Below are positions 1,572-60,094 of a DNA stretch of 60,094 bases, piece by piece (position 1 is the first letter of the stretch; every line of letters begins with the position of its first letter). The stretch is from a phage. The DNA is taken from the sequence record PZ445424.1, one strand, 5' to 3'. The translations under genes and the position numbers were made by a program. Under the pieces are notes generated by a model. That model worked only from the letters and a program-made list of their open reading frames with translations, did not search any database and was not told the DNA's origin.

Positions 1572-3068
1572 ATGGGTATTGATGCAACTCACCCGCTATA
1601 TGACAAGTGGAAGGATGCATGGGTTAAGTGCAACGACTGCTATGAGGGTGAAGATAAAATTAAGGAAGAAGGTGTTAAATATCTACCACCTTTAGCTTCC
1701 ATGATTATTGATGGGATGAATAACCCTAATGATTTGGGCTTTCAACGTTGGCTCGCTTATCGTTTGCGTGCTAACTTCCCTGACGATTATTCAAGTGCTG
1801 TCACAAATAATTTAGGTCTGTTGCACCAGAAGCCGCCTACAATCCAGCTTCCTCCTGAAATGGAGTACATGCGGGAGCTGTGTACTGCGGATGGTGAAGA
1901 CATTATTGCTCTGCTACGTCGCATCAACGAAATGCAGTTAAAAAATGGACGTTTGGGCCTGCTGCTGGACTTACCAAAAGGTGAGGATGTAAATAACAGA
2001 CCGTATATTAGCGTTTATGATGCTTTATCCATTATCAACTGGGATGATGGTAAAGATGAACTGGGTAATATCAACTTGAACATGGTTGTACTGGATGAAA
2101 GCGGTCCTGTACGTGTTAATCAGTTTGACTGGAAAGAAGAGAAGCGTTATCGAGTTCTGCAATTAGGTCCGATGGACACAGATGAAGTTGCAGGCGGGGC
2201 GGTCTACTCCCAGCATTTATTCATCAACAATACCAATTATGATGAAGGGCAAATGATTGCTCCTTATTATAAAGGTAAGACTCTGGACGAAATACCTTTC
2301 CAGTTTGTTAATACAACAGATATTACCCCAGCACCGGAAGCGCCTCCATTGTTGGGGCTAGCTAACATCTGCTTAAGCATGTATCGAAGTGACGCTGATT
2401 ACCGTCAAAGTCTGCATATGCAAGGTCAGGACACGTTAGTTGTTGTTGGTGGCTCTGGCGAGAATGGGGATAAAGCCCCTCAACGTATTGGTCCTGGTGC
2501 GGTGATTAACGTTGCTCTTGGGGGTGACGCTAAATATGTAGGCGTTAGCGGCGATGGTTTGTCCGAGCAACGCCTTGCATTGGCGGCGGATAAGCAGGAA
2601 GCTCAGATTAAAGCTGGGCAGATGGTAAACAACACCAAGAGCACGCAGGAATCAGGCGAAGCTATGAAAACGCGTATTGCTGCGCGTACCGCTAGCCTGA
2701 TTCGAATTGCGTATACTGGTGCGGCAGGTTTGGAAAACTTGCTGAAGGTCTGCGCTAAATGGATGGGTGCTGATCCAGAGAAAGTTGTGGTTAAGCCTAA
2801 TCTTGAATTTACCAAGAGCATGTTTAACGGTCAGGACTTTGTTCAAATTATTACTGCACGCAACCTTAAGGCTCCGATCAGTTTGCAGTCTATTCATGGC
2901 TGGCTTGTTGATCAGGGCTTAACCACACTAAGCTTTGAAGAAGAAATGGCAATTCTTGAAGAAGAGCTTAAGAAGTGGCCTCTGCCCGATGATGCTAAAG
3001 CTGATTTAAACGCAGAGCAGCAAGTAAACAAAGATCCTAAGGAAGACAACGCTTCCGATAAAGAATAG
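1572..3068 (+). CDS. Portal protein
   Basis: 498 aa ORF directly downstream of terminase with GGAGGG RBS; size and synteny typical of siphovirus portal; no diagnostic motif confirmed. Confidence 0.65.
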   Translation: MGIDATHPLYDKWKDAWVKCNDCYEGEDKIKEEGVKYLPPLASMIIDGMNNPNDLGFQRWLAYRLRANFPDDYSSAVTNNLGLLHQKPPTIQLPPEMEYMRELCTADGEDIIALLRRINEMQLKNGRLGLLLDLPKGEDVNNRPYISVYDALSIINWDDGKDELGNINLNMVVLDESGPVRVNQFDWKEEKRYRVLQLGPMDTDEVAGGAVYSQHLFINNTNYDEGQMIAPYYKGKTLDEIPFQFVNTTDITPAPEAPPLLGLANICLSMYRSDADYRQSLHMQGQDTLVVVGGSGENGDKAPQRIGPGAVINVALGGDAKYVGVSGDGLSEQRLALAADKQEAQIKAGQMVNNTKSTQESGEAMKTRIAARTASLIRIAYTGAAGLENLLKVCAKWMGADPEKVVVKPNLEFTKSMFNGQDFVQIITARNLKAPISLQSIHGWLVDQGLTTLSFEEEMAILEEELKKWPLPDDAKADLNAEQQVNKDPKEDNASDKE

Positions 3069-3163: not shown

Positions 3164-4036
3164 ATGAAAAAGAGTTCTGTAGCTATTAGTGTTGGTATGG
3201 CTTTAATTAATCCACGCGCTCGCGGTGAAGGTGATGTGGAACTGGAATACGAATATGCATCTGCGGAAGAGATCCCGGCAGAGTTTGCAACTCTTTACGC
3301 AGAGCAGGGCGGTAAATACGTTCTTGCAAAAGTTAAAGGTGTAGCCCCTGCTGATAGCGTTCGTCGTCTGGAAAGTGCGTTAGCTAAAGAACGTAACGAC
3401 CATCGTCAGGTGAAGCAACAGATTAGCGCACTTGGGCGTCCGGTTGAAGAAGTCCTTGCGGACCTTGATCGTATCCCTCAACTGGAAGCTGCCGCTAACG
3501 GTAAAGGTACTCCGGAAGACATCGAAAAGATGGTTAAAGCCCGTCTTGCTCCGCTCGAGCGTCAATTACAAACTGTAGCAGCTGAACGCGATTCCGTTAA
3601 GCAGGAAATTGAAGGCTACCGCACTCGCGAAACTAAAGCGAAAATTAAAGACGCAGTTATTGCTGCTGCATCCGGTGCTAAGCTGCGTCCGTCTGCTATC
3701 GAAGATGCGGTGACTTATGCACAGTTGCAAATGACCGTCGACGAGAACGGCAATGTGGTTACGAAAGATGGGGCTGGTGTAACTCCATACCTGACTCCGG
3801 CTGATTGGCTGAACGAAATCCTTCCGAAACGTCCGCACTGGGTTGAAGGATCTGCTGGTGGTGGTGCATCTGGTCCGGGCGCTGGCGGACATCACGGCGA
3901 AGACCCTTACAGTCACGACGGTTGGAACATCTCTAAACAGATGAATCTCTGGAAAACTAATCAATCTTTAGCTAAACGCTTAGCTGAAAAGAATGGCGTA
4001 GACCCGCTGAAGCCTGTACGTCCTGCTAAGAAATAA
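3164..4036 (+). CDS. Scaffolding protein (putative)
   Basis: 290 aa highly charged, predicted helical protein between portal and major capsid genes; GGAG RBS; no protease motif seen. Confidence 0.45.
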   Translation: MKKSSVAISVGMALINPRARGEGDVELEYEYASAEEIPAEFATLYAEQGGKYVLAKVKGVAPADSVRRLESALAKERNDHRQVKQQISALGRPVEEVLADLDRIPQLEAAANGKGTPEDIEKMVKARLAPLERQLQTVAAERDSVKQEIEGYRTRETKAKIKDAVIAAASGAKLRPSAIEDAVTYAQLQMTVDENGNVVTKDGAGVTPYLTPADWLNEILPKRPHWVEGSAGGGASGPGAGGHHGEDPYSHDGWNISKQMNLWKTNQSLAKRLAEKNGVDPLKPVRPAKK

Positions 4037-4158: not shown

Positions 4159-5220
4159 ATGTCTAAATCTAAAATTATTCTACCATTTGGTCGTGGTGAA
4201 ACTGACCTGACTCGTTTGAAGGATGTCATTGTCCCTGAGATCTTCACTGGTTATGTGCAGACGCAGACCGCTGAACTTTCTGCTCTGATTCAATCCGGTG
4301 CGGTTGTAATGGACGAGCGTTTATCTGCTAACCTTGCTGGTGCAGGTCTGACTTTTAACGAGCCGTTCTATAACGACCTGAAAGATGAAGACGAAGATAT
4401 CGCTGTTGATAAAGGCGATCCGTCCAAACCGTCTAACATCACTACCGGATCTGAAGTTCAGGTTCGTATGAGTCGTTCAAAATCCTGGGGTTCTGCGGAT
4501 CTGGTATCAGCTTTGATTGGTAACGACCCAATGACCGCTATCGGTAACCGCGTGTCTGCGTGGTGGGTCCGCCGTCTGCAAGCTGCATACATCGCAACCT
4601 GGAAAGGTGTATTTGCTAATGCGAAGAAATCTCATAACGACGATTTGACTTTCGACATCTCTGGTTCTTCTTTTGTAAATAACCAGACCAACTTTACCGC
4701 GTCTAACTTCATCAACGCAACTGCAACGATGGGTGATGCTGCCCGCGGTCTGACTATGATTATGGTACACTCTACCGTTCGTAACCGTATGCGTCAGTTG
4801 AACCTGATCGACTTCATTCCAGATGCTCGCGGTGAAACTCAGTTTGAGTATTATCAGGGTCTGCGTATTATTGAAGACGACTCCATGCCACACGATCCGT
4901 CTACTGGTGTGTTTGAAAGCTGGCTGTTCGGCCCGGGCGCAACTGCAATGGGTGCTGGATCACCGAAAGTTCCGACCGCTGTGGTGCGTGACGAAGCCGC
5001 TAACCAAGGCGCTGGTGAAGAAGTTCTTCACAACCGTGTTGAATGGATTCTGCATCCGGTTGGCCATGCTTGGGCTGCTGCTCAAACTGCTAAAGGTGGT
5101 CCGTCTAACGCTGCTACCACTAACAACCTGGCCCATGAAGATTCCTGGCGTCGTGCGTTCCCTGAGCGCAAGCAGCTTAAAGTTGCACGCCTGATCACTC
5201 GTGAGTATCAGGGTTCCTAA
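4159..5220 (+). CDS. Major capsid protein
   Basis: 353 aa ORF with GGAG RBS, positioned after portal/scaffold and followed by a strong intrinsic terminator, as expected for a highly expressed capsid gene. Confidence 0.7.
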   Translation: MSKSKIILPFGRGETDLTRLKDVIVPEIFTGYVQTQTAELSALIQSGAVVMDERLSANLAGAGLTFNEPFYNDLKDEDEDIAVDKGDPSKPSNITTGSEVQVRMSRSKSWGSADLVSALIGNDPMTAIGNRVSAWWVRRLQAAYIATWKGVFANAKKSHNDDLTFDISGSSFVNNQTNFTASNFINATATMGDAARGLTMIMVHSTVRNRMRQLNLIDFIPDARGETQFEYYQGLRIIEDDSMPHDPSTGVFESWLFGPGATAMGAGSPKVPTAVVRDEAANQGAGEEVLHNRVEWILHPVGHAWAAAQTAKGGPSNAATTNNLAHEDSWRRAFPERKQLKVARLITREYQGS

Positions 5221-53432: not shown

Positions 53433-53530
53433 ACCTACCATAAAAAGTGACCCTTAGGAGTTTCACGCTTTCTATATACTGGGTTTAGTGCTAAAATATA
53501 GGTGATGTAAACTTGATCAGAGGCATTGAA

Positions 53531-54004
53531 ATGAACTGGAATAACATATTTGAATACAGGGATGGTGTTCTGTATTGGAAGGTGAGTAGACGATGTATAA
53601 ACGCAGGAGACAGAGCTGGATACGTTCAAGAGGACGGATACACGAGAATAGCATTTGAAGGCAAGCAATACCTGCGTCACCGAATAGTGTGGTTAATGCA
53701 CGGAAGAACTATTCCGGAAGGTATGGAAATTGACCACATTGACCATGACCGCCAAAATGACCGAATTGAAAATTTACGTTTAGTTACTGCTGTAGTAAAC
53801 TGTCAAAATAAAGGAAAATATATCAGTAACACAAGCGGCGTTACTGGTGTAAGCTGGGACAGAAAGAATTTAAAATGGTTTGTAACTATAAGAGTCAATA
53901 AAAAGAATGTATTTTTAGGTCGTTTTGACAAATTTGATGAAGCAGTTAAGGTACGAAAGGAAGCGGAATTGCTGTATAATTTCCACGAAAACCACGGTAA
54001 ATGA
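53531..54004 (+). CDS. HNH homing endonuclease with AP2-type domain (paralog of 50459-50941)
   Basis: Start refined to ATG 53531; motifs EGMEIDHIDH...NDRIENLRLV and SGVTGVSWDRK shared with the - strand paralog. Confidence 0.8.
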   Translation: MNWNNIFEYRDGVLYWKVSRRCINAGDRAGYVQEDGYTRIAFEGKQYLRHRIVWLMHGRTIPEGMEIDHIDHDRQNDRIENLRLVTAVVNCQNKGKYISNTSGVTGVSWDRKNLKWFVTIRVNKKNVFLGRFDKFDEAVKVRKEAELLYNFHENHGK

Positions 54005-54496: not shown

Positions 54497-54547
54497 TTAT
54501 CAATCTATAATGGGCTCTACGGAGCCCTTAATTATCTGGAGGTTGTT

Positions 54548-55686: not shown

Positions 55687-55753
55687 TTGAAGAAAATATC
55701 AAATATTGGAAAGGTTTTATTGACGAAATGCTGAAACCATTGGAGAAGAAATA

Positions 55754-56146
55754 ATGCTATTAGTCGTCACCGGAGGTCGAGATTTTAAGCATGTGGAGTA
55801 TATTTACGCTCAATTGGATAAGCTGCATATGCAAAGAAGGATAACCACACTTCGCCACGGTGACGCTGACGGTGTTGACCGGATTTGCGCACATTGGGCG
55901 GAGCGGAACGGTATTAAGACGGAGGCGTTTCCTGCGCCGTGGGACAATCTTTCGCTTCCAAATACTAAGATACGGTATAACGCCAGAGGTGCTTATAATG
56001 CACAAGCGGGCGCTTACCGTAATCAATTAATGCTGGATACTGATCCTAAACCAGATCACGCTATTGTGTTTCCGGGCGGGGCTGGTACTATGGACATGTA
56101 CAGACGGATTAAAGCATCCGGTATTCCTTACACATTAGCGGAGTAA
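55754..56146 (+). CDS. SLOG/DUF2493-like Rossmann-fold protein (putative)
   Basis: 130 aa; LLVVTGGRDF...HGDADGVDR...IVFPGGAGT pattern resembles the SLOG/LOG-like fold. Confidence 0.4.
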   Translation: MLLVVTGGRDFKHVEYIYAQLDKLHMQRRITTLRHGDADGVDRICAHWAERNGIKTEAFPAPWDNLSLPNTKIRYNARGAYNAQAGAYRNQLMLDTDPKPDHAIVFPGGAGTMDMYRRIKASGIPYTLAE

Positions 56147-56149
56147 ATA

Positions 56150-56620
56150 ATGGCTGACGTTAAAACTATTGTTGATGCAATGAACGAATCCAAAGATTGC
56201 CAACTGAAGAAGTCGTTTGAAGTAAAACAGGTTACAGAGACTCAGTTGGTCTGTAATTTTGCGCGTTATTGTGGACTGGGGCGCGGGAAAGACTGGAACG
56301 GGCTTATTGTTATGCCCACATCACAGATCCTTGTCTATGTCCGTAATGTTGTAGAAGATCTTTTACGTCTCCAAATAGATATTGGTGACGTAGAAATTAA
56401 CATGACCGCGAGCTCTACTATTGTGGTTAAATGGCAGTCGGGCGAGACACTTCGTTTGGAAGCGTGTCATTGTGCTAAGAGCTTGCACCACCTGCGCGGT
56501 TGTCACTACCAGTTTGTTGGGTTTGTGCATCCGCAAGGGTTGAGCGAGCGTACGGCGCTGGTAGCGCGTTTGCTGCTGCGTCCTTATAATAACGAGCCAG
56601 AAGTCATATACGAGGCATAA
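56150..56620 (+). CDS. Hypothetical protein
   Basis: 156 aa ORF. Confidence 0.4.
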   Translation: MADVKTIVDAMNESKDCQLKKSFEVKQVTETQLVCNFARYCGLGRGKDWNGLIVMPTSQILVYVRNVVEDLLRLQIDIGDVEINMTASSTIVVKWQSGETLRLEACHCAKSLHHLRGCHYQFVGFVHPQGLSERTALVARLLLRPYNNEPEVIYEA

Positions 56621-56622
56621 AA

Positions 56623-57048
56623 ATGTCAGTAAATTTTGTCAAACAGCCAACTTTAAATACATGCGTTTCTGCGTGTTTGGCAATGATCCTTAATAAACCT
56701 GTTGAGAAGGTGATTGAGGAATTTCATAGTCGTTATTATAACAACTGGGAAATCACTATCAGCGAATATTTGACTAAAAACGGCGTCCAGCATCATTGTT
56801 CAGAAGGTGGTGGGCGCGAAACTTTGCATATGGGAGGTTTGTTCCTGTGCACTGTCCCAAGTCTCAATGTTCCTGGAGCACTGCATCAGGTTGTGATCGA
56901 TACAACCAATCACAAGTTTATTGTACATGACCCGATTAAAGGTTGGGAAGGTAAAAAGTTCTACGTTGGTCCGGATCAAGATCCTGAACAGCCAGGAGCA
57001 TTTATCATTCATACTTGGGTTAAAGATGTTGAAATTGTGCTTAATTAA
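56623..57048 (+). CDS. C39-like (papain-fold) cysteine peptidase domain protein
   Basis: 141 aa; QPTLNTCVSACLAMIL matches the Q...C(G)xAxLxM catalytic-Cys motif of peptidase C39 domains; His candidates in LHQVVID / IVHDP. Confidence 0.45.
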   Translation: MSVNFVKQPTLNTCVSACLAMILNKPVEKVIEEFHSRYYNNWEITISEYLTKNGVQHHCSEGGGRETLHMGGLFLCTVPSLNVPGALHQVVIDTTNHKFIVHDPIKGWEGKKFYVGPDQDPEQPGAFIIHTWVKDVEIVLN

Positions 57049-57110
57049 AAACCTTGCTATCAGATAACCATTCATTGTATTGTGTACCCATCGAATAAGA
57101 GGGGTACACA

Positions 57111-57296
57111 ATGACCAAACTATACGCCGGATTGTTTTTATTTGCGACGTTAATGTTCGCTGGGCTTTATACCTATACAGTAGTCGAACAACCTTCCACG
57201 GTTATCCGAATCTTTGCAAGTACAGGGCTTTGTATCTGTCTTATTCTATTTGTTTTATGCATTGTTATTATCCAAGACCAAAGGAAAATTAAATGA
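57111..57296 (+). CDS. Small membrane protein (2 TM)
   Basis: 61 aa; two hydrophobic helices; strong RBS. Confidence 0.4.
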   Translation: MTKLYAGLFLFATLMFAGLYTYTVVEQPSTVIRIFASTGLCICLILFVLCIVIIQDQRKIK

Positions 57297-57757
57297 CCAC
57301 AATTGCGTTTGATGGAAAAGTATTAGCTGCGGACCGTGGAGTTATGCGCGGGGAAGCTGTGACTGCTTATAAGAAAGTTCATAGCGTAAATGGACATCGT
57401 GGACGGTTTTTACTGGGATTGTGCGGCCTTACAGCATTTACCGATCAGGTGTTGCGTTATTTTAATAGCGCGGAACCTGTTAAGTTCCCTGATATTAAAC
57501 TTTACAGCAAAGATGATGATTACGGGCAAACTTGCGGTCTTGCTGTCACTCCGGAAGGCACTTGCCATTTTATTTATAACGATGGTACTTTGAGCGAACC
57601 CATGCTGGATGGATGGGGATCTGAGGGTAGCGGTTGTGTGTTTGCTGCTGGCGCGTTAGCTGCTGGTGCAAGTGCGAGCGAAGCTATTGAGTTAGCAATT
57701 AAACACACCACATGCGCATTCCTAGGAGTTGATACAATATCATTTGAGGGTTTTTAA
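57293..57757 (+). CDS. HslV/proteasome beta-subunit-like Ntn-hydrolase (putative threonine peptidase)
   Basis: 154 aa; N-terminus MTTIAFDG with Thr at position 2 as in HslV (MTTIVSV); GSEGSGCVFAAGALAAG parallels HslV GSGGPYAQAAARAL. Confidence 0.5.
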   Translation: MTTIAFDGKVLAADRGVMRGEAVTAYKKVHSVNGHRGRFLLGLCGLTAFTDQVLRYFNSAEPVKFPDIKLYSKDDDYGQTCGLAVTPEGTCHFIYNDGTLSEPMLDGWGSEGSGCVFAAGALAAGASASEAIELAIKHTTCAFLGVDTISFEGF

Positions 57758-58018
57758 ATGACTACATTCAGTCACCTGATCCCACCTGCTTATCATAGTA
57801 AGGTAGTTGACCACGGGACGCATGTTGTAATTGGTGGCGAAATCTTTATCACAGATAACGAGGAAATCGCCATTGCAATTATTGACAGCACTCAGCATGA
57901 CTTTATGGTTATCCTGCAACACGAACCAGATAACTTCACTTTTTACTCCAGCTACGGGGTCGATAAAGGTGGAGAAAGCCTTGTTAGCTGGTACATTAGC
58001 GAGTGGTTTGACGGGTAA
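57758..58018 (+). CDS. Hypothetical protein
   Basis: 86 aa ORF. Confidence 0.4.
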   Translation: MTTFSHLIPPAYHSKVVDHGTHVVIGGEIFITDNEEIAIAIIDSTQHDFMVILQHEPDNFTFYSSYGVDKGGESLVSWYISEWFDG

Positions 58019-58100
58019 TCTCCTTAGATCAATTCTCCTTGCGCCGTATCAAGTTTCTCTGTTACCCTTGAGTGGTTCATGTCAAGCGGAGGAACTCGAT

Positions 58101-58538
58101 ATGGCACTTCAACCTCGTGGTATTCGTAATAACAATCCAGGTAATATTCGCTGGGGTGACAATTGGCAGGGCTTAGTTCCTGCTGATAAGCGAACCGATA
58201 AATCTTTTGCTCAATTCACGCAACCGATTTACGGCATTCGTGCGCTAGCGAAAATCCTGACAAACTACACCAAACGTGAAGGCTTGCCCAATGTGGGTAA
58301 GAAAAACATCGACACTGTACGTGAAATTATCGCTCGCTGGGCACCGCCTAACGAAAACGATACGGAAGCGTATATTCGCTCTGTTGCCAAAGCAATTGGT
58401 GTTCAACCTAACGATCCAATTAATGTCTTTGACAAGGCAATTATGTCAGGATTGGTGAAAGCAATCATTCGTCATGAAAATGGCATGATGCCCTATACCG
58501 ACGACGTAATTAACCGCGCTATTGCAATGGTAATTTAA
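58101..58538 (+). CDS. Putative endolysin (peptidoglycan hydrolase), assigned by position
   Basis: Start refined to ATG 58101 (GGAGG RBS); 145 aa soluble protein directly upstream of holin and spanin genes; motif GIRNNNPGNIRWG; enzymatic class not identified. Confidence 0.4.
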   Translation: MALQPRGIRNNNPGNIRWGDNWQGLVPADKRTDKSFAQFTQPIYGIRALAKILTNYTKREGLPNVGKKNIDTVREIIARWAPPNENDTEAYIRSVAKAIGVQPNDPINVFDKAIMSGLVKAIIRHENGMMPYTDDVINRAIAMVI

Positions 58539-58574
58539 CTGACGGGGCGTTAGCCCCTTTTATTTGGAGGGAAC

Positions 58575-58919
58575 ATGTTCAATTCACCCAACGAACATTG
58601 GGCAGTTCTAGCGGGGTTTGCGTTTATCTCCCTCATTGGGGGAGCTCTCGGTTATGTCATGCGTACAATAGACGCTGGTAAGAAAGTACGGGCAAGCATT
58701 GCATTTCTTGAAGGCTTATCCGCCGCTTTCTTTGGCGTTATAATGTATGCGATCTACAGGGAGTTTAACATCAGCCTTTGGTTCGCTTTTGGCCTTGCTG
58801 GCCTATTTGCTTGGGCAGGTTCACGTGCTACGCTAAAAGCCCTAACGTCGCTTATAGCTTCACGGACAGGGATCAAACTCGATTCAGGGGACTGCAAACA
58901 TGAAAACGATTCTAAATAA
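58575..58919 (+). CDS. Holin (3 TM segments)
   Basis: 114 aa; three hydrophobic helices and charged C-terminus; located between putative endolysin and spanin genes. Confidence 0.55.
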   Translation: MFNSPNEHWAVLAGFAFISLIGGALGYVMRTIDAGKKVRASIAFLEGLSAAFFGVIMYAIYREFNISLWFAFGLAGLFAWAGSRATLKALTSLIASRTGIKLDSGDCKHENDSK

Positions 58920-59376
58920 CTTCTTCGGTTTTATAAAAACTAAACCGCGTCTGTTTATCGAGTATTTGATGATCGGCGCGGTTGTGTTTTTATGCGGGGT
59001 GGCTGCTTACTTGTGGTCACAGAACGAGCTCAGCAAAACTAATTTAAATCATGCTGAGCAAAGACTAACCGTTGTAGAACAGGACAATGCAAAGCTGGGC
59101 GAGGCTGTTGTATTTCTTGCTTCCCAACGGGAGAAGGATACTGAATCATATCGAAAATTGGCTTCAGCAATTGAAAGTGAGCAACATAACCACAGGTTGC
59201 TTCAGGACAAATTAAAAGCACTGGAGAAAAGCAATGCCGACGTCAAAGCTTATCTTAATGAGCGTGTTCCTGATGATTTGCGCAGGCTGCTCGACGGAGA
59301 TACAACCTCCACCACCGCCGCAGATAGTGAAGATAAAACTTCCAGCTCATCTGTTGGTAGAATGTCGGGAAGTTGA
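58900..59376 (+). CDS. Inner-membrane spanin (Rz-like)
   Basis: 158 aa; N-terminal TM helix (LMIGAVVFLCGVAAYLW) followed by coiled-coil-like periplasmic domain; overlapped by a lipoprotein ORF in another frame. Confidence 0.6.
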   Translation: MKTILNNFFGFIKTKPRLFIEYLMIGAVVFLCGVAAYLWSQNELSKTNLNHAEQRLTVVEQDNAKLGEAVVFLASQREKDTESYRKLASAIESEQHNHRLLQDKLKALEKSNADVKAYLNERVPDDLRRLLDGDTTSTTAADSEDKTSSSSVGRMSGS

Positions 59377-59539
59377 TAAATATCCTTTGGTTTATACAAG
59401 GGATATTATCCAACGTTTGCAGGATACAGAAACAGCTCTGACTGAATGTAAACTGAGGGTTAAGGAAATCATACGCTATGAAGCTGAAAATGTTTCGCTT
59501 GATTTTGTAGGATCAAGCAATTATATTCAGCCTAAATAG
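59234..59539 (+). CDS. Outer-membrane spanin lipoprotein (Rz1-like)
   Basis: 101 aa in +1 frame, starting inside the i-spanin gene and extending past its stop; signal peptide with lipobox-like ICAG-C followed by PPPPP tract. Confidence 0.5.
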   Translation: MPTSKLILMSVFLMICAGCSTEIQPPPPPQIVKIKLPAHLLVECREVDKYPLVYTRDIIQRLQDTETALTECKLRVKEIIRYEAENVSLDFVGSSNYIQPK

Positions 59540-59559
59540 CAATAAGAAAGGGGGCTTCC

Positions 59560-60094
59560 ATGAACGGGGCAAGTCAAGAGCAATATGATCGTGACTGGAC
59601 GAATTACATCCAGTATGCAAATAGCTTGTCCGCTGACGAGATGGCAATACGTGACAAAGTTGTTGCTGAGTATATGTTCGACTACAATTGGACTAACGCT
59701 TGCATGAGATGCGGGTTCAATGCTATGTTTGCACAGGAGCTTGGCCAACGCTTTGCCACGGACTGTTACGTTCGATGGAAGCTCAAGGAGATTGAAAGAT
59801 CCCGTGTTCAACGTACTTCTGAGCAAGCTAACATTGAAGCAGACCTAGAGCGTCAGCATATCATTGAAGCATTAAAACGTGAAGCTCATTATACAGGACC
59901 GGGATCTTCTCAAGCTGCTAGAGTAGCCGCATTGGGCAAGCTTGCACAAATTTATGATTTGGATGCTCCCAAGAAGGCTAAAATTGATGTTACTAACAGA
60001 GGCGGCGTAATGATAGTCCCTGCTGTAGCAAATATTGACGAATGGGAAAAAACTGCATCCGAGTCTCAACAACTGCTAGTTAAAGAGACTGAAG
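59560..60094 (+). CDS. Terminase small subunit (putative), 3' end beyond window
   Basis: Open frame from ATG 59560 (RBS AAGGGGG) to the window end with no stop; absent from ORF track because truncated; would sit directly upstream of terminase large subunit on a circular map. Confidence 0.45.
   Translation, partial: MNGASQEQYDRDWTNYIQYANSLSADEMAIRDKVVAEYMFDYNWTNACMRCGFNAMFAQELGQRFATDCYVRWKLKEIERSRVQRTSEQANIEADLERQHIIEALKREAHYTGPGSSQAARVAALGKLAQIYDLDAPKKAKIDVTNRGGVMIVPAVANIDEWEKTASESQQLLVKETE

Follow-up and report, generated by a model that had tools for sequence, protein, structure and literature searches.

The complete genome of Escherichia phage WildeMaa (MZ501112, BASEL phage Bas23; Queuovirinae, Seuratvirus), present in sequence record PZ445424.1 as a stretch of 60,094 nucleotides (hereafter the window), carries two small genes for predicted peptidases near its right end, and we conclude that their products are probably two independent accessory enzymes and not parts of one machine. 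One gene (56623-57048, plus strand; bas23_0090) encodes a protein of 141 amino acids that matches PHROG 4049 and is predicted to be a stand-alone, C39-like cysteine peptidase with a papain fold. The other (57293-57757, plus strand; bas23_0092) encodes a protein of 154 amino acids that matches PHROG 1040 and is a miniature homolog of HslV and the proteasome beta subunit, of the PPH type. The PPH family has been described before and is very common in phages; the C39-like protein belongs to a new-looking but automatically annotated stand-alone branch.

The open reading frames (ORFs) and motifs quoted in an initial annotation, made from the sequence alone, are present on the plus strand as given there, and we verified their codon positions. 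Between the two peptidase genes lies a third (57111-57296, plus strand), whose 61-amino acid product matches PHROG 22841 only. It had been described as a small membrane protein, and hydropathy analysis agrees, with hydrophobic stretches at residues 7-25 and ~30-58. A Shine-Dalgarno-like motif precedes each of the three ORFs, and the stop codon of the 61-amino acid gene overlaps the start codon of the PPH gene (ATGA). Ratios of non-synonymous to synonymous polymorphism (pN/pS), computed against CAjan, slur01 and two related contigs, were 0.00-0.02 for the PPH gene, 0.11-0.12 for the C39-like gene and 0-0.15 for the 61-amino acid gene. By these sequence criteria the three ORFs are real genes under constraint, with purifying selection indicated for both peptidase genes.

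The 154-amino acid protein starts MTTIAFDG and carries GSEGSGCVFAAGALAAGASA. We scored the PPH catalytic positions in 145 representatives with 23-37% identity, and based the equivalence to proteasome Asp17, Lys33 and Gly47 on an alignment with HslV and on published work (PMC8665760). Thr2 (57296-57298, plus strand, as are all codons given here), the predicted N-terminal nucleophile after removal of Met1, is Thr in 135 representatives and Ser in 10, and the nucleophile stands right after the start codon in 142 of the 145. Methionine aminopeptidase accepts Thr at position 2, as in E. coli HslV. Asp14 (57332-57334), the equivalent of proteasome Asp17, is retained in 144/145, and both Lys28 (57374-57376; proteasome Lys33) and Gly45 (57425-57427; proteasome Gly47) in all 145. 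Within Gly112-Ser113-Gly114 (57626-57634), each glycine is again invariant (145/145) and the serine is present in 124/145; this segment aligns on 'IGSGG' of HslV and corresponds to the G-S-G loop that is conserved in HslV and in proteasome beta subunits. Judged from these alignments, PPH conserves the same active-site residues as HslV and the proteasome.

Family and fold comparisons point the same way. The protein matches PHROG 1040, 'peptidase HslV family', with E 5.4e-32. Its CAjan ortholog is entered as 'putative protease' in GenBank and then as 'peptidase HslV family' in RefSeq, so that the earlier statement that they could not be assigned to any described system is not supported; the WildeMaa record itself labels the protein 'hypothetical protein'. 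Single-sequence searches of the PDB gave nothing significant for either the 154- or the 141-amino acid protein, nor did a profile of the C39-like family run against PDB sequences, and structure and profile-profile comparison was needed. A PPH family profile built from 22 homologs matched HslV in the PDB (E 2.5e-9) as well as BPH and the proteasome beta subunits of archaea and eukaryotes (E 4e-6 to 1e-4). The AlphaFold model of the 154-amino acid protein has a predicted local distance difference test (pLDDT) score of 95.6, and the top Foldseek matches of the model were HslV and beta5 (E ~3e-6, template modelling score 0.66), together with BPH (probability 1.0 and template modelling scores of 0.6-0.66 over all three). 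The proposal of an HslV/proteasome-like N-terminal nucleophile (Ntn) hydrolase at 57293-57757 is thus borne out by the model, the Foldseek matches, the profile and the conserved residues. The only helices of the model are at residues 47-58 (H1), 115-123 and 128-138 (H3/H4), and the last strand is at 146-149. H2 is missing from this predicted structure, with no helix between residues 59 and 79, and in the profile alignment HslV has 13-14 extra residues after H1 when compared with PPH.

These features are those of a published family. A 2021 study (Fuchs et al., PMC8665760) presented PPH as a true viral homolog of the proteasome, with ~140 residues, found in Caudovirales and prophages and placed in the HslV/BPH group; its members have no propeptide and are without H2 and the C-terminal S12/H5 elements, PPH and RPC being the groups described as lacking H2 (PMC8665760). 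WP_042125023.1 is one of the PPH reference sequences of that study. The 154-amino acid protein agrees with every PPH feature that we tested, namely fold, start, catalytic residues, compactness and tailed-phage origin, and on sequence and predicted structure we assign it to PPH. It departs from HslV proper in the curated score, in H2 and in the partner unfoldase gene: neither the neighbours of PPH nor the annotated genes of the full WildeMaa record include an AAA+ unfoldase. Nor are such proteins rare in phages, as had been supposed. Besides the 2021 description and the existence of PHROG 1040, our PPH profile search, which covered 1.84 billion cluster representatives (clusters at 50% identity), matched 11,461 proteins at E≤1e-3 and 7,900 clusters at E≤1e-10, nearly all of them 140-155 amino acids long and aligned from residue 1. 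PPH relatives were confirmed at 144 loci in viral contigs. Three longer relatives (P0169, P0190 and P0197; 212-252 amino acids) have a common C-terminal extension with the motif …TDGTIVDAYD…ARFVQGLWYE…TPRTF-EWR. Domain fusions were considered for the longer relatives and rejected, their C-terminal extensions being without a Pfam match, and the three proteins probably correspond to what Fuchs et al. call the RPC group, which is related to PPH and has a C-terminal extension.

The 141-amino acid protein carries the motif VKQPTLNTCVSACLAMIL, which includes Q8 and C14. Across 60 homologs of 29-94% identity, Q8, C14, C18, M21, H88, D103 and P104 are invariant. The reference set comprised the authentic C39 domains of eight exporters encoded on plasmids, among them CvaB and ComA; a CvaB N-terminus, used as a probe only, matched the real cvaB at 100%. 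When the phage family was compared with these domains by hhalign, 105 columns aligned with a probability of 96.1% (E 3e-9). Gln8 (56644-56646), at the oxyanion-hole position, aligns on CvaB Gln26; Cys14 (56662-56664), the predicted nucleophile, on Cys32; His88 (56884-56886), the predicted general base, on His105; and Asp103-Pro104 (56929-56934), of which the Asp is the predicted base-orienting acid, on Asp121-Pro122 (all codons on the plus strand). Q26, C32, H105 and D121 of CvaB are invariant across the eight authentic domains, and Cys32 and His105 are reported as critical in a study of CvaB (PMC3335142). The AlphaFold model (pLDDT 96.2) has a papain-like fold, and the best structural and profile matches were all true C39 leader peptidases. 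Fold and residues in register with CvaB uphold the original reading of 56623-57048 as a C39-like cysteine peptidase; for both proteins, the proposed folds and the conservation of the catalytic residues were recovered, so that the outcome named in the initial annotation as refuting it did not occur.

This protein also stands apart from the canonical family. PHROG 4049 carries no function, and a profile search found at least 150 related clusters, of ~140 amino acids each. The homolog in phage Vid5 is named 'Peptidase C39 domain-containing' in UniRef, and one Salmonella phage record gives a homolog as 'ABC-type bacteriocin transporter peptidase domain'. Pfam C39 produced weak matches in 15 of the 60 family members (best E 0.0034), and Pfam Peptidase_C39_2 produced no match for the phage family. 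No transporter was found among the neighbours of the C39-like gene, either here or in 29 de-duplicated loci. A scan of all window ORFs for Gly-Gly leaders gave no convincing candidate, with a simple pattern that could miss a divergent or host-encoded substrate. On sequence and model, we regard the 141-amino acid protein as a divergent, stand-alone C39-like peptidase and not as a canonical family member. The only real gene that fitted the double-glycine-leader pattern was the holin gene (…FISLIGG followed by ALGY…); its Gly-Gly is within the first of the predicted membrane helices, and the match is probably due to chance.

The two peptidases and the membrane protein between them had been suggested to form a single module. 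We therefore searched 80 viral PPH loci and 74 C39-like loci, each with 6-kb flanks, with both family profiles. Outside Seuratvirus, not one of 78 PPH loci had a C39-like gene within 6 kb. In the reverse direction, a PPH gene was nearby in 13 of 71 C39-like loci outside Seuratvirus, always downstream and on the same strand, and 58 were without one. Seven of the 13 shared loci are from Queuovirinae-like siphoviruses (Nonagvirus-like L093/L104, L130/L135 and Vid5 L137). In these the C39-like gene is followed by one gene and then by PPH, as in Seuratvirus, but the middle gene varies, encoding the 61-amino acid membrane protein in Seuratvirus, an unannotated 117-amino acid protein in the Nonagvirus-like phages and a SLOG/DUF2493 protein in Vid5; the membrane protein is Seuratvirus-specific, and the genes found in its place in other Queuovirinae-like phages are unrelated to it. 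The other six shared loci are of lambdoid type, with the C39-like gene between replication/helicase-loader genes and NinB/NinG, and the PPH gene ~3.2-5.1 kb further downstream, upstream of TerL (the large terminase) in three of them.

The wider distributions of the two families also differ. By tblastn, the C39-like protein was found in 192 of 50,697 phage records from several unrelated groups, including ~157-kb Salmonella/Escherichia phages, ~92-kb Pseudomonas phages, 40-kb Vibrio phages and a jumbo Erwinia phage; at the same sensitivity, WildeMaa PPH was found in 60 records only, mostly relatives of WildeMaa. C39-like genes in contigs of 156-160 kb (L085-L088, L091, L150) and in other large contigs had no PPH gene within 6 kb. 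When we took up to two genes on each side of the C39-like gene in the 29 de-duplicated loci, the 106 neighbouring proteins were a heterogeneous set of DNA metabolism functions (methyltransferases, helicase, topoisomerase, NinB, RusA, HNH), with three PPH proteins among them. A conserved module, tested in both directions, was thus rejected. Neither peptidase gene needs the other, and their adjacency in WildeMaa is best explained as a lineage-specific gene order of the Queuovirinae.

PPH genes, for their part, keep company with packaging and head genes. In 63 de-duplicated viral loci, considering two same-strand genes on each side, the gene downstream of PPH was most often TerL (PHROG 2 in 12 proteins, PHROG 979 in 8 and PHROG 3717 in 4), followed by TerS of several families, portal (5 and 4) and Neck1 (4). 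Upstream we found mostly TerL, TerS, adaptor Ad1 (5), portal and major capsid, with some NinB. Individual maps show three arrangements. In one the order is TerL, PPH, portal; in the T7-type loci L006/L007 PPH lies between portal and a scaffold-sized gene; and in L045-type loci the order is scaffold, capsid, Ad1, PPH, Neck1, the scaffold (PHROG 206) and capsid (PHROG 247) families being shared with WildeMaa. The head module of WildeMaa itself consists of portal, scaffold and capsid, with no recognisable prohead protease. Since the usual place of PPH is beside terminase, portal or neck genes, and in WildeMaa just before the lysis and packaging genes, gene order suggests that PPH acts late in infection.

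If the two proteins are independent enzymes, as we think probable, host methionine aminopeptidase would remove Met1 of PPH and leave Thr with a free amino group. This Thr would serve as the N-terminal nucleophile, assisted by Lys28 and Asp14, and Gly45 would form the oxyanion hole. PPH subunits would then form rings that cut at least one protein substrate, and activity would probably depend on oligomerisation. The 141-amino acid protein would apply cytoplasmic thiol endopeptidase chemistry, with no transporter, to a phage or host protein, and may cut after a short motif of small residues of the Gly-Gly type, as C39 enzymes do. Several observations weigh against this account. Both proteins fall below Pfam cut-offs (Proteasome, PF00227, 15.4 versus 22.4 bits for the 154-amino acid protein; Peptidase_C39, PF03412, 14.8 versus 22 bits over residues 3-25 for the 141-amino acid protein). 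Some of the new proteasome homologs may have unprecedented quaternary structures (PMC8665760), and the loss of H2 could alter or abolish assembly of PPH into rings. We found no experimental work on the activity, oligomeric state, timing or substrate of PPH or phage C39-like proteins in the literature. Lastly, the order C39-like gene, one gene, PPH gene is kept in Seuratvirus-, Nonagvirus- and Vid5-like phages at 33-38% protein identity, which leaves room for a functional link between both genes within that lineage.

This shared order is also what a single module of the C39-like protein, the 61-amino acid protein and PPH, serving host takeover, anti-defence or lysis timing, would have in its favour, as it recurs in L093, L104, L130/L135 and Vid5 (L137). 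In WildeMaa the three genes are moreover co-directional and tightly packed, the stop of the second overlapping the start of the third, the peptidase block lies directly upstream of the lysis cassette, and in six lambdoid-type loci both genes are within ~5.1 kb. We nevertheless consider such a module improbable, given 0/78 distant PPH loci with a C39-like gene and 58/71 distant C39-like loci without PPH, the mere 3 PPH proteins among 106 C39-like neighbours, the C39-like genes of large contigs that have no PPH within 6 kb, the occurrence of C39-like genes in many other phage groups, the lack of conservation of the middle gene, whose membrane protein is confined to Seuratvirus, and the placing of the two genes in different functional regions (nin versus pre-terminase) of the lambdoid loci. 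The neighbours of PPH raise a different possibility, that it is an assembly-linked protease which removes or trims scaffold or other head proteins, or is needed for packaging in another way, in phages without a prohead protease of the HK97 or ClpP type. The dominance of terminase, portal, adaptor, neck and capsid genes around PPH, its location next to a scaffold-sized gene in T7-like loci and between Ad1 and Neck1 in loci with the scaffold and capsid families of WildeMaa, and the absence of a recognisable protease from the WildeMaa head module all speak for this. Set against them are the small ORF and whole lysis cassette that separate PPH from the head genes in WildeMaa, and the fact that virion proteomics placing PPH in particles was not found in the literature searched. 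Accessory genes and HNH endonucleases are moreover often found in the terminase-adjacent slot, and to our knowledge heads of the SPP1, P22 and T7 types mature without any protease. On balance we hold an assembly role for PPH to be unlikely, and slightly more doubtful still the more specific idea that PPH is a late assembly-linked threonine protease, a third mechanistic class of phage morphogenetic protease beside the HK97/herpesvirus and ClpP/S49 types, which would clear or trim scaffold or other proteins of head and neck in phages with no canonical prohead protease in their head modules.

Two further alternatives concern what each enzyme would do by itself. PPH might hijack host HslU or poison host HslV rings, so that HslUV proteolysis is redirected or blocked. 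The host encodes HslUV, HslV is the closest characterised relative of PPH by sequence, and the N-terminus of E. coli HslV, which we take to be MTTIV, can be likened to the MTTIA of PPH. However, PPH is without H2 and ~13-14 residues that are present in HslV, scores below the Pfam Proteasome threshold, and occurs in phages of many hosts, never with an adjacent AAA+ gene in the loci examined; the WildeMaa genome also has no annotated unfoldase. We think that such interference with HslUV is very improbable. As for the 141-amino acid protein, its Cys/His/Asp triad could support some other chemistry, such as the removal of ubiquitin-like or other Gly-Gly-linked conjugates that host defence systems form, deamidation or acyl transfer. 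In favour of this, the simple pattern scan revealed no evident Gly-Gly-leader substrate in the phage proteome, and no conserved neighbour points to a phage substrate. Its best structural and profile matches, however, are all true C39 leader peptidases, and it has the oxyanion Gln and the His...Asp-Pro motif of C39 enzymes. Another chemistry thus seems unlikely, if less so than the other alternatives, and we continue to favour two independent accessory peptidases.

The surroundings of these genes were examined in the window as a whole, which is the complete WildeMaa genome rotated by 531 nucleotides (window position = record position - 531; 60,094 nucleotides versus 60,090 in the WildeMaa record). 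Region 55700-59600 has 100% identity to WildeMaa, and 92-97% identity to 34 further Seuratvirus-type genomes. The window opens with the gene for the large terminase; the right end of the window holds the lysis cassette and the end of the TerS gene. TerL (1-1560) is followed by portal (1572-3068), scaffold (PHROG 206; 3164-4036, plus strand) and major capsid (PHROG 247; 4159-5220, plus strand), and tail genes extend to ~22 kb. Replication and 7-deazaguanine genes occupy the minus strand from ~22.8 to 52.1 kb. Small rightward genes form a block that originates in the divergent intergenic region near 52.1-52.8 kb and extends from ~52.8 kb into the lysis cassette and, past the junction of the window ends, to the terminase genes. 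Both peptidase genes are at the far end of the small genes of this block, upstream of endolysin, holin, spanins and then terminase. The initial annotation had placed them in the early region, which is not established, as they close the series of small rightward genes and lie just before the lysis cassette. No data on expression of the peptidase genes during infection were found in the literature searched, and neither functional-genomics studies of phages nor a comparative study of Seuratvirus yielded essentiality data for Queuovirinae. An Avs2 paper that mentions Seuratvirus was set aside, being about terminase recognition and irrelevant to both peptidases.

Directly 3' of the PPH gene is an ORF of 86 amino acids (57758-58018, plus strand; PHROG 23528, no function). 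It has no match in the slur01-type locus L002, and the slot after the PPH gene is therefore variable within the genus. Endolysin (58101-58538) and holin (58575-58919, plus strand) come next, then the inner (i-spanin) and outer (o-spanin) spanins. Nonagvirus-like loci have a gene for a DUF2514 protein (Pfam PF10721, E 1.7e-12; L104 7647-8144, L130 7693-8232) between PPH and endolysin, so that PPH abuts lysis genes in those phages too. A promoter consensus scan of the region gave promoter-like sites at a frequency not above that in shuffled sequence. Terminator-like GC-rich hairpins with T-runs were seen on the plus strand at 54512-54527 and 58544-58557, and these two flank a block of ~4 kb with both peptidase genes and the endolysin gene; the region has 9 terminator-like sites versus 5.7 +/- 2.5 in shuffled sequence, which is not clearly higher. 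In Seuratvirus, a SLOG protein related to YspA/cpYpsA (55754-56146, plus strand; Pfam PF10686, E 4.9e-18) is encoded two genes before the C39-like gene. SLOG domains are thought to bind nucleotides. In Vid5 a SLOG protein gene (L137 6462-6827), annotated as DUF2493, lies directly between the C39-like and PPH genes. A conserved trio that includes the SLOG/YspA gene was considered and rejected: the gene is present in Seuratvirus and Vid5, and the intervening gene of Nonagvirus-like phages has no such domain. Further upstream, an ORF at 53513-54004 (plus strand) carries HIDHDRQNDRIENL and reads as HNH homing endonuclease-like; the WildeMaa record has 'putative homing endonuclease' at this position.

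Both families are very widespread in phages, PPH in thousands of clusters. WildeMaa (Bas23), a member of a public reference collection that can be grown on E. coli K-12, is a convenient system in which to study the function of a viral mini-proteasome subunit and of a C39 peptidase without a transporter. The census of neighbourhoods provides a usable lead, with PPH as a gene of the packaging/head module and the C39-like gene as one of the replication/nin region, and because of this difference the two peptidases are best studied separately.

Comparison with characterised systems places both proteins. With PPH the 154-amino acid protein shares a length of ~140-155 amino acids, a Met-Thr start, the lack of a propeptide, origin in a tailed phage of a proteobacterium, the equivalents of Thr1, Asp17, Lys33 and Gly47, and the absence of H2 and S12/H5; nothing is substantively different, 154 amino acids being at the long end of the range. 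Its nearest characterised relative is HslV (ClpQ, the core of HslUV), which has the same Ntn fold and catalytic residues and whose mature N-terminal Thr is exposed through removal of Met, as proposed here for the phage protein. Unlike HslV, the phage protein is ~20 residues shorter, has no H2, scores below the Pfam threshold and has no hslU-like partner gene. BPH (of beta-proteobacteria) and 20S beta subunits resemble it in fold and active-site architecture but are larger (~185-220 amino acids), with H2 and often H5 or a propeptide, and are cellular whereas this protein is viral. The C39 domains of CvaB, ComA, PCAT1 and LahT are N-terminal in ABC transporters, whereas the 141-amino acid protein would be free in the cytoplasm; it is also below the Pfam threshold, has no evident gene for a Gly-Gly-leader substrate nearby, and is encoded, in phages, among replication and nin-type genes. 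Stand-alone C39-like proteins, represented by PDB 3erv from Bacillus anthracis and Pfam Peptidase_C39_2, differ from it in being larger, in having extra decorations and in being bacterial.

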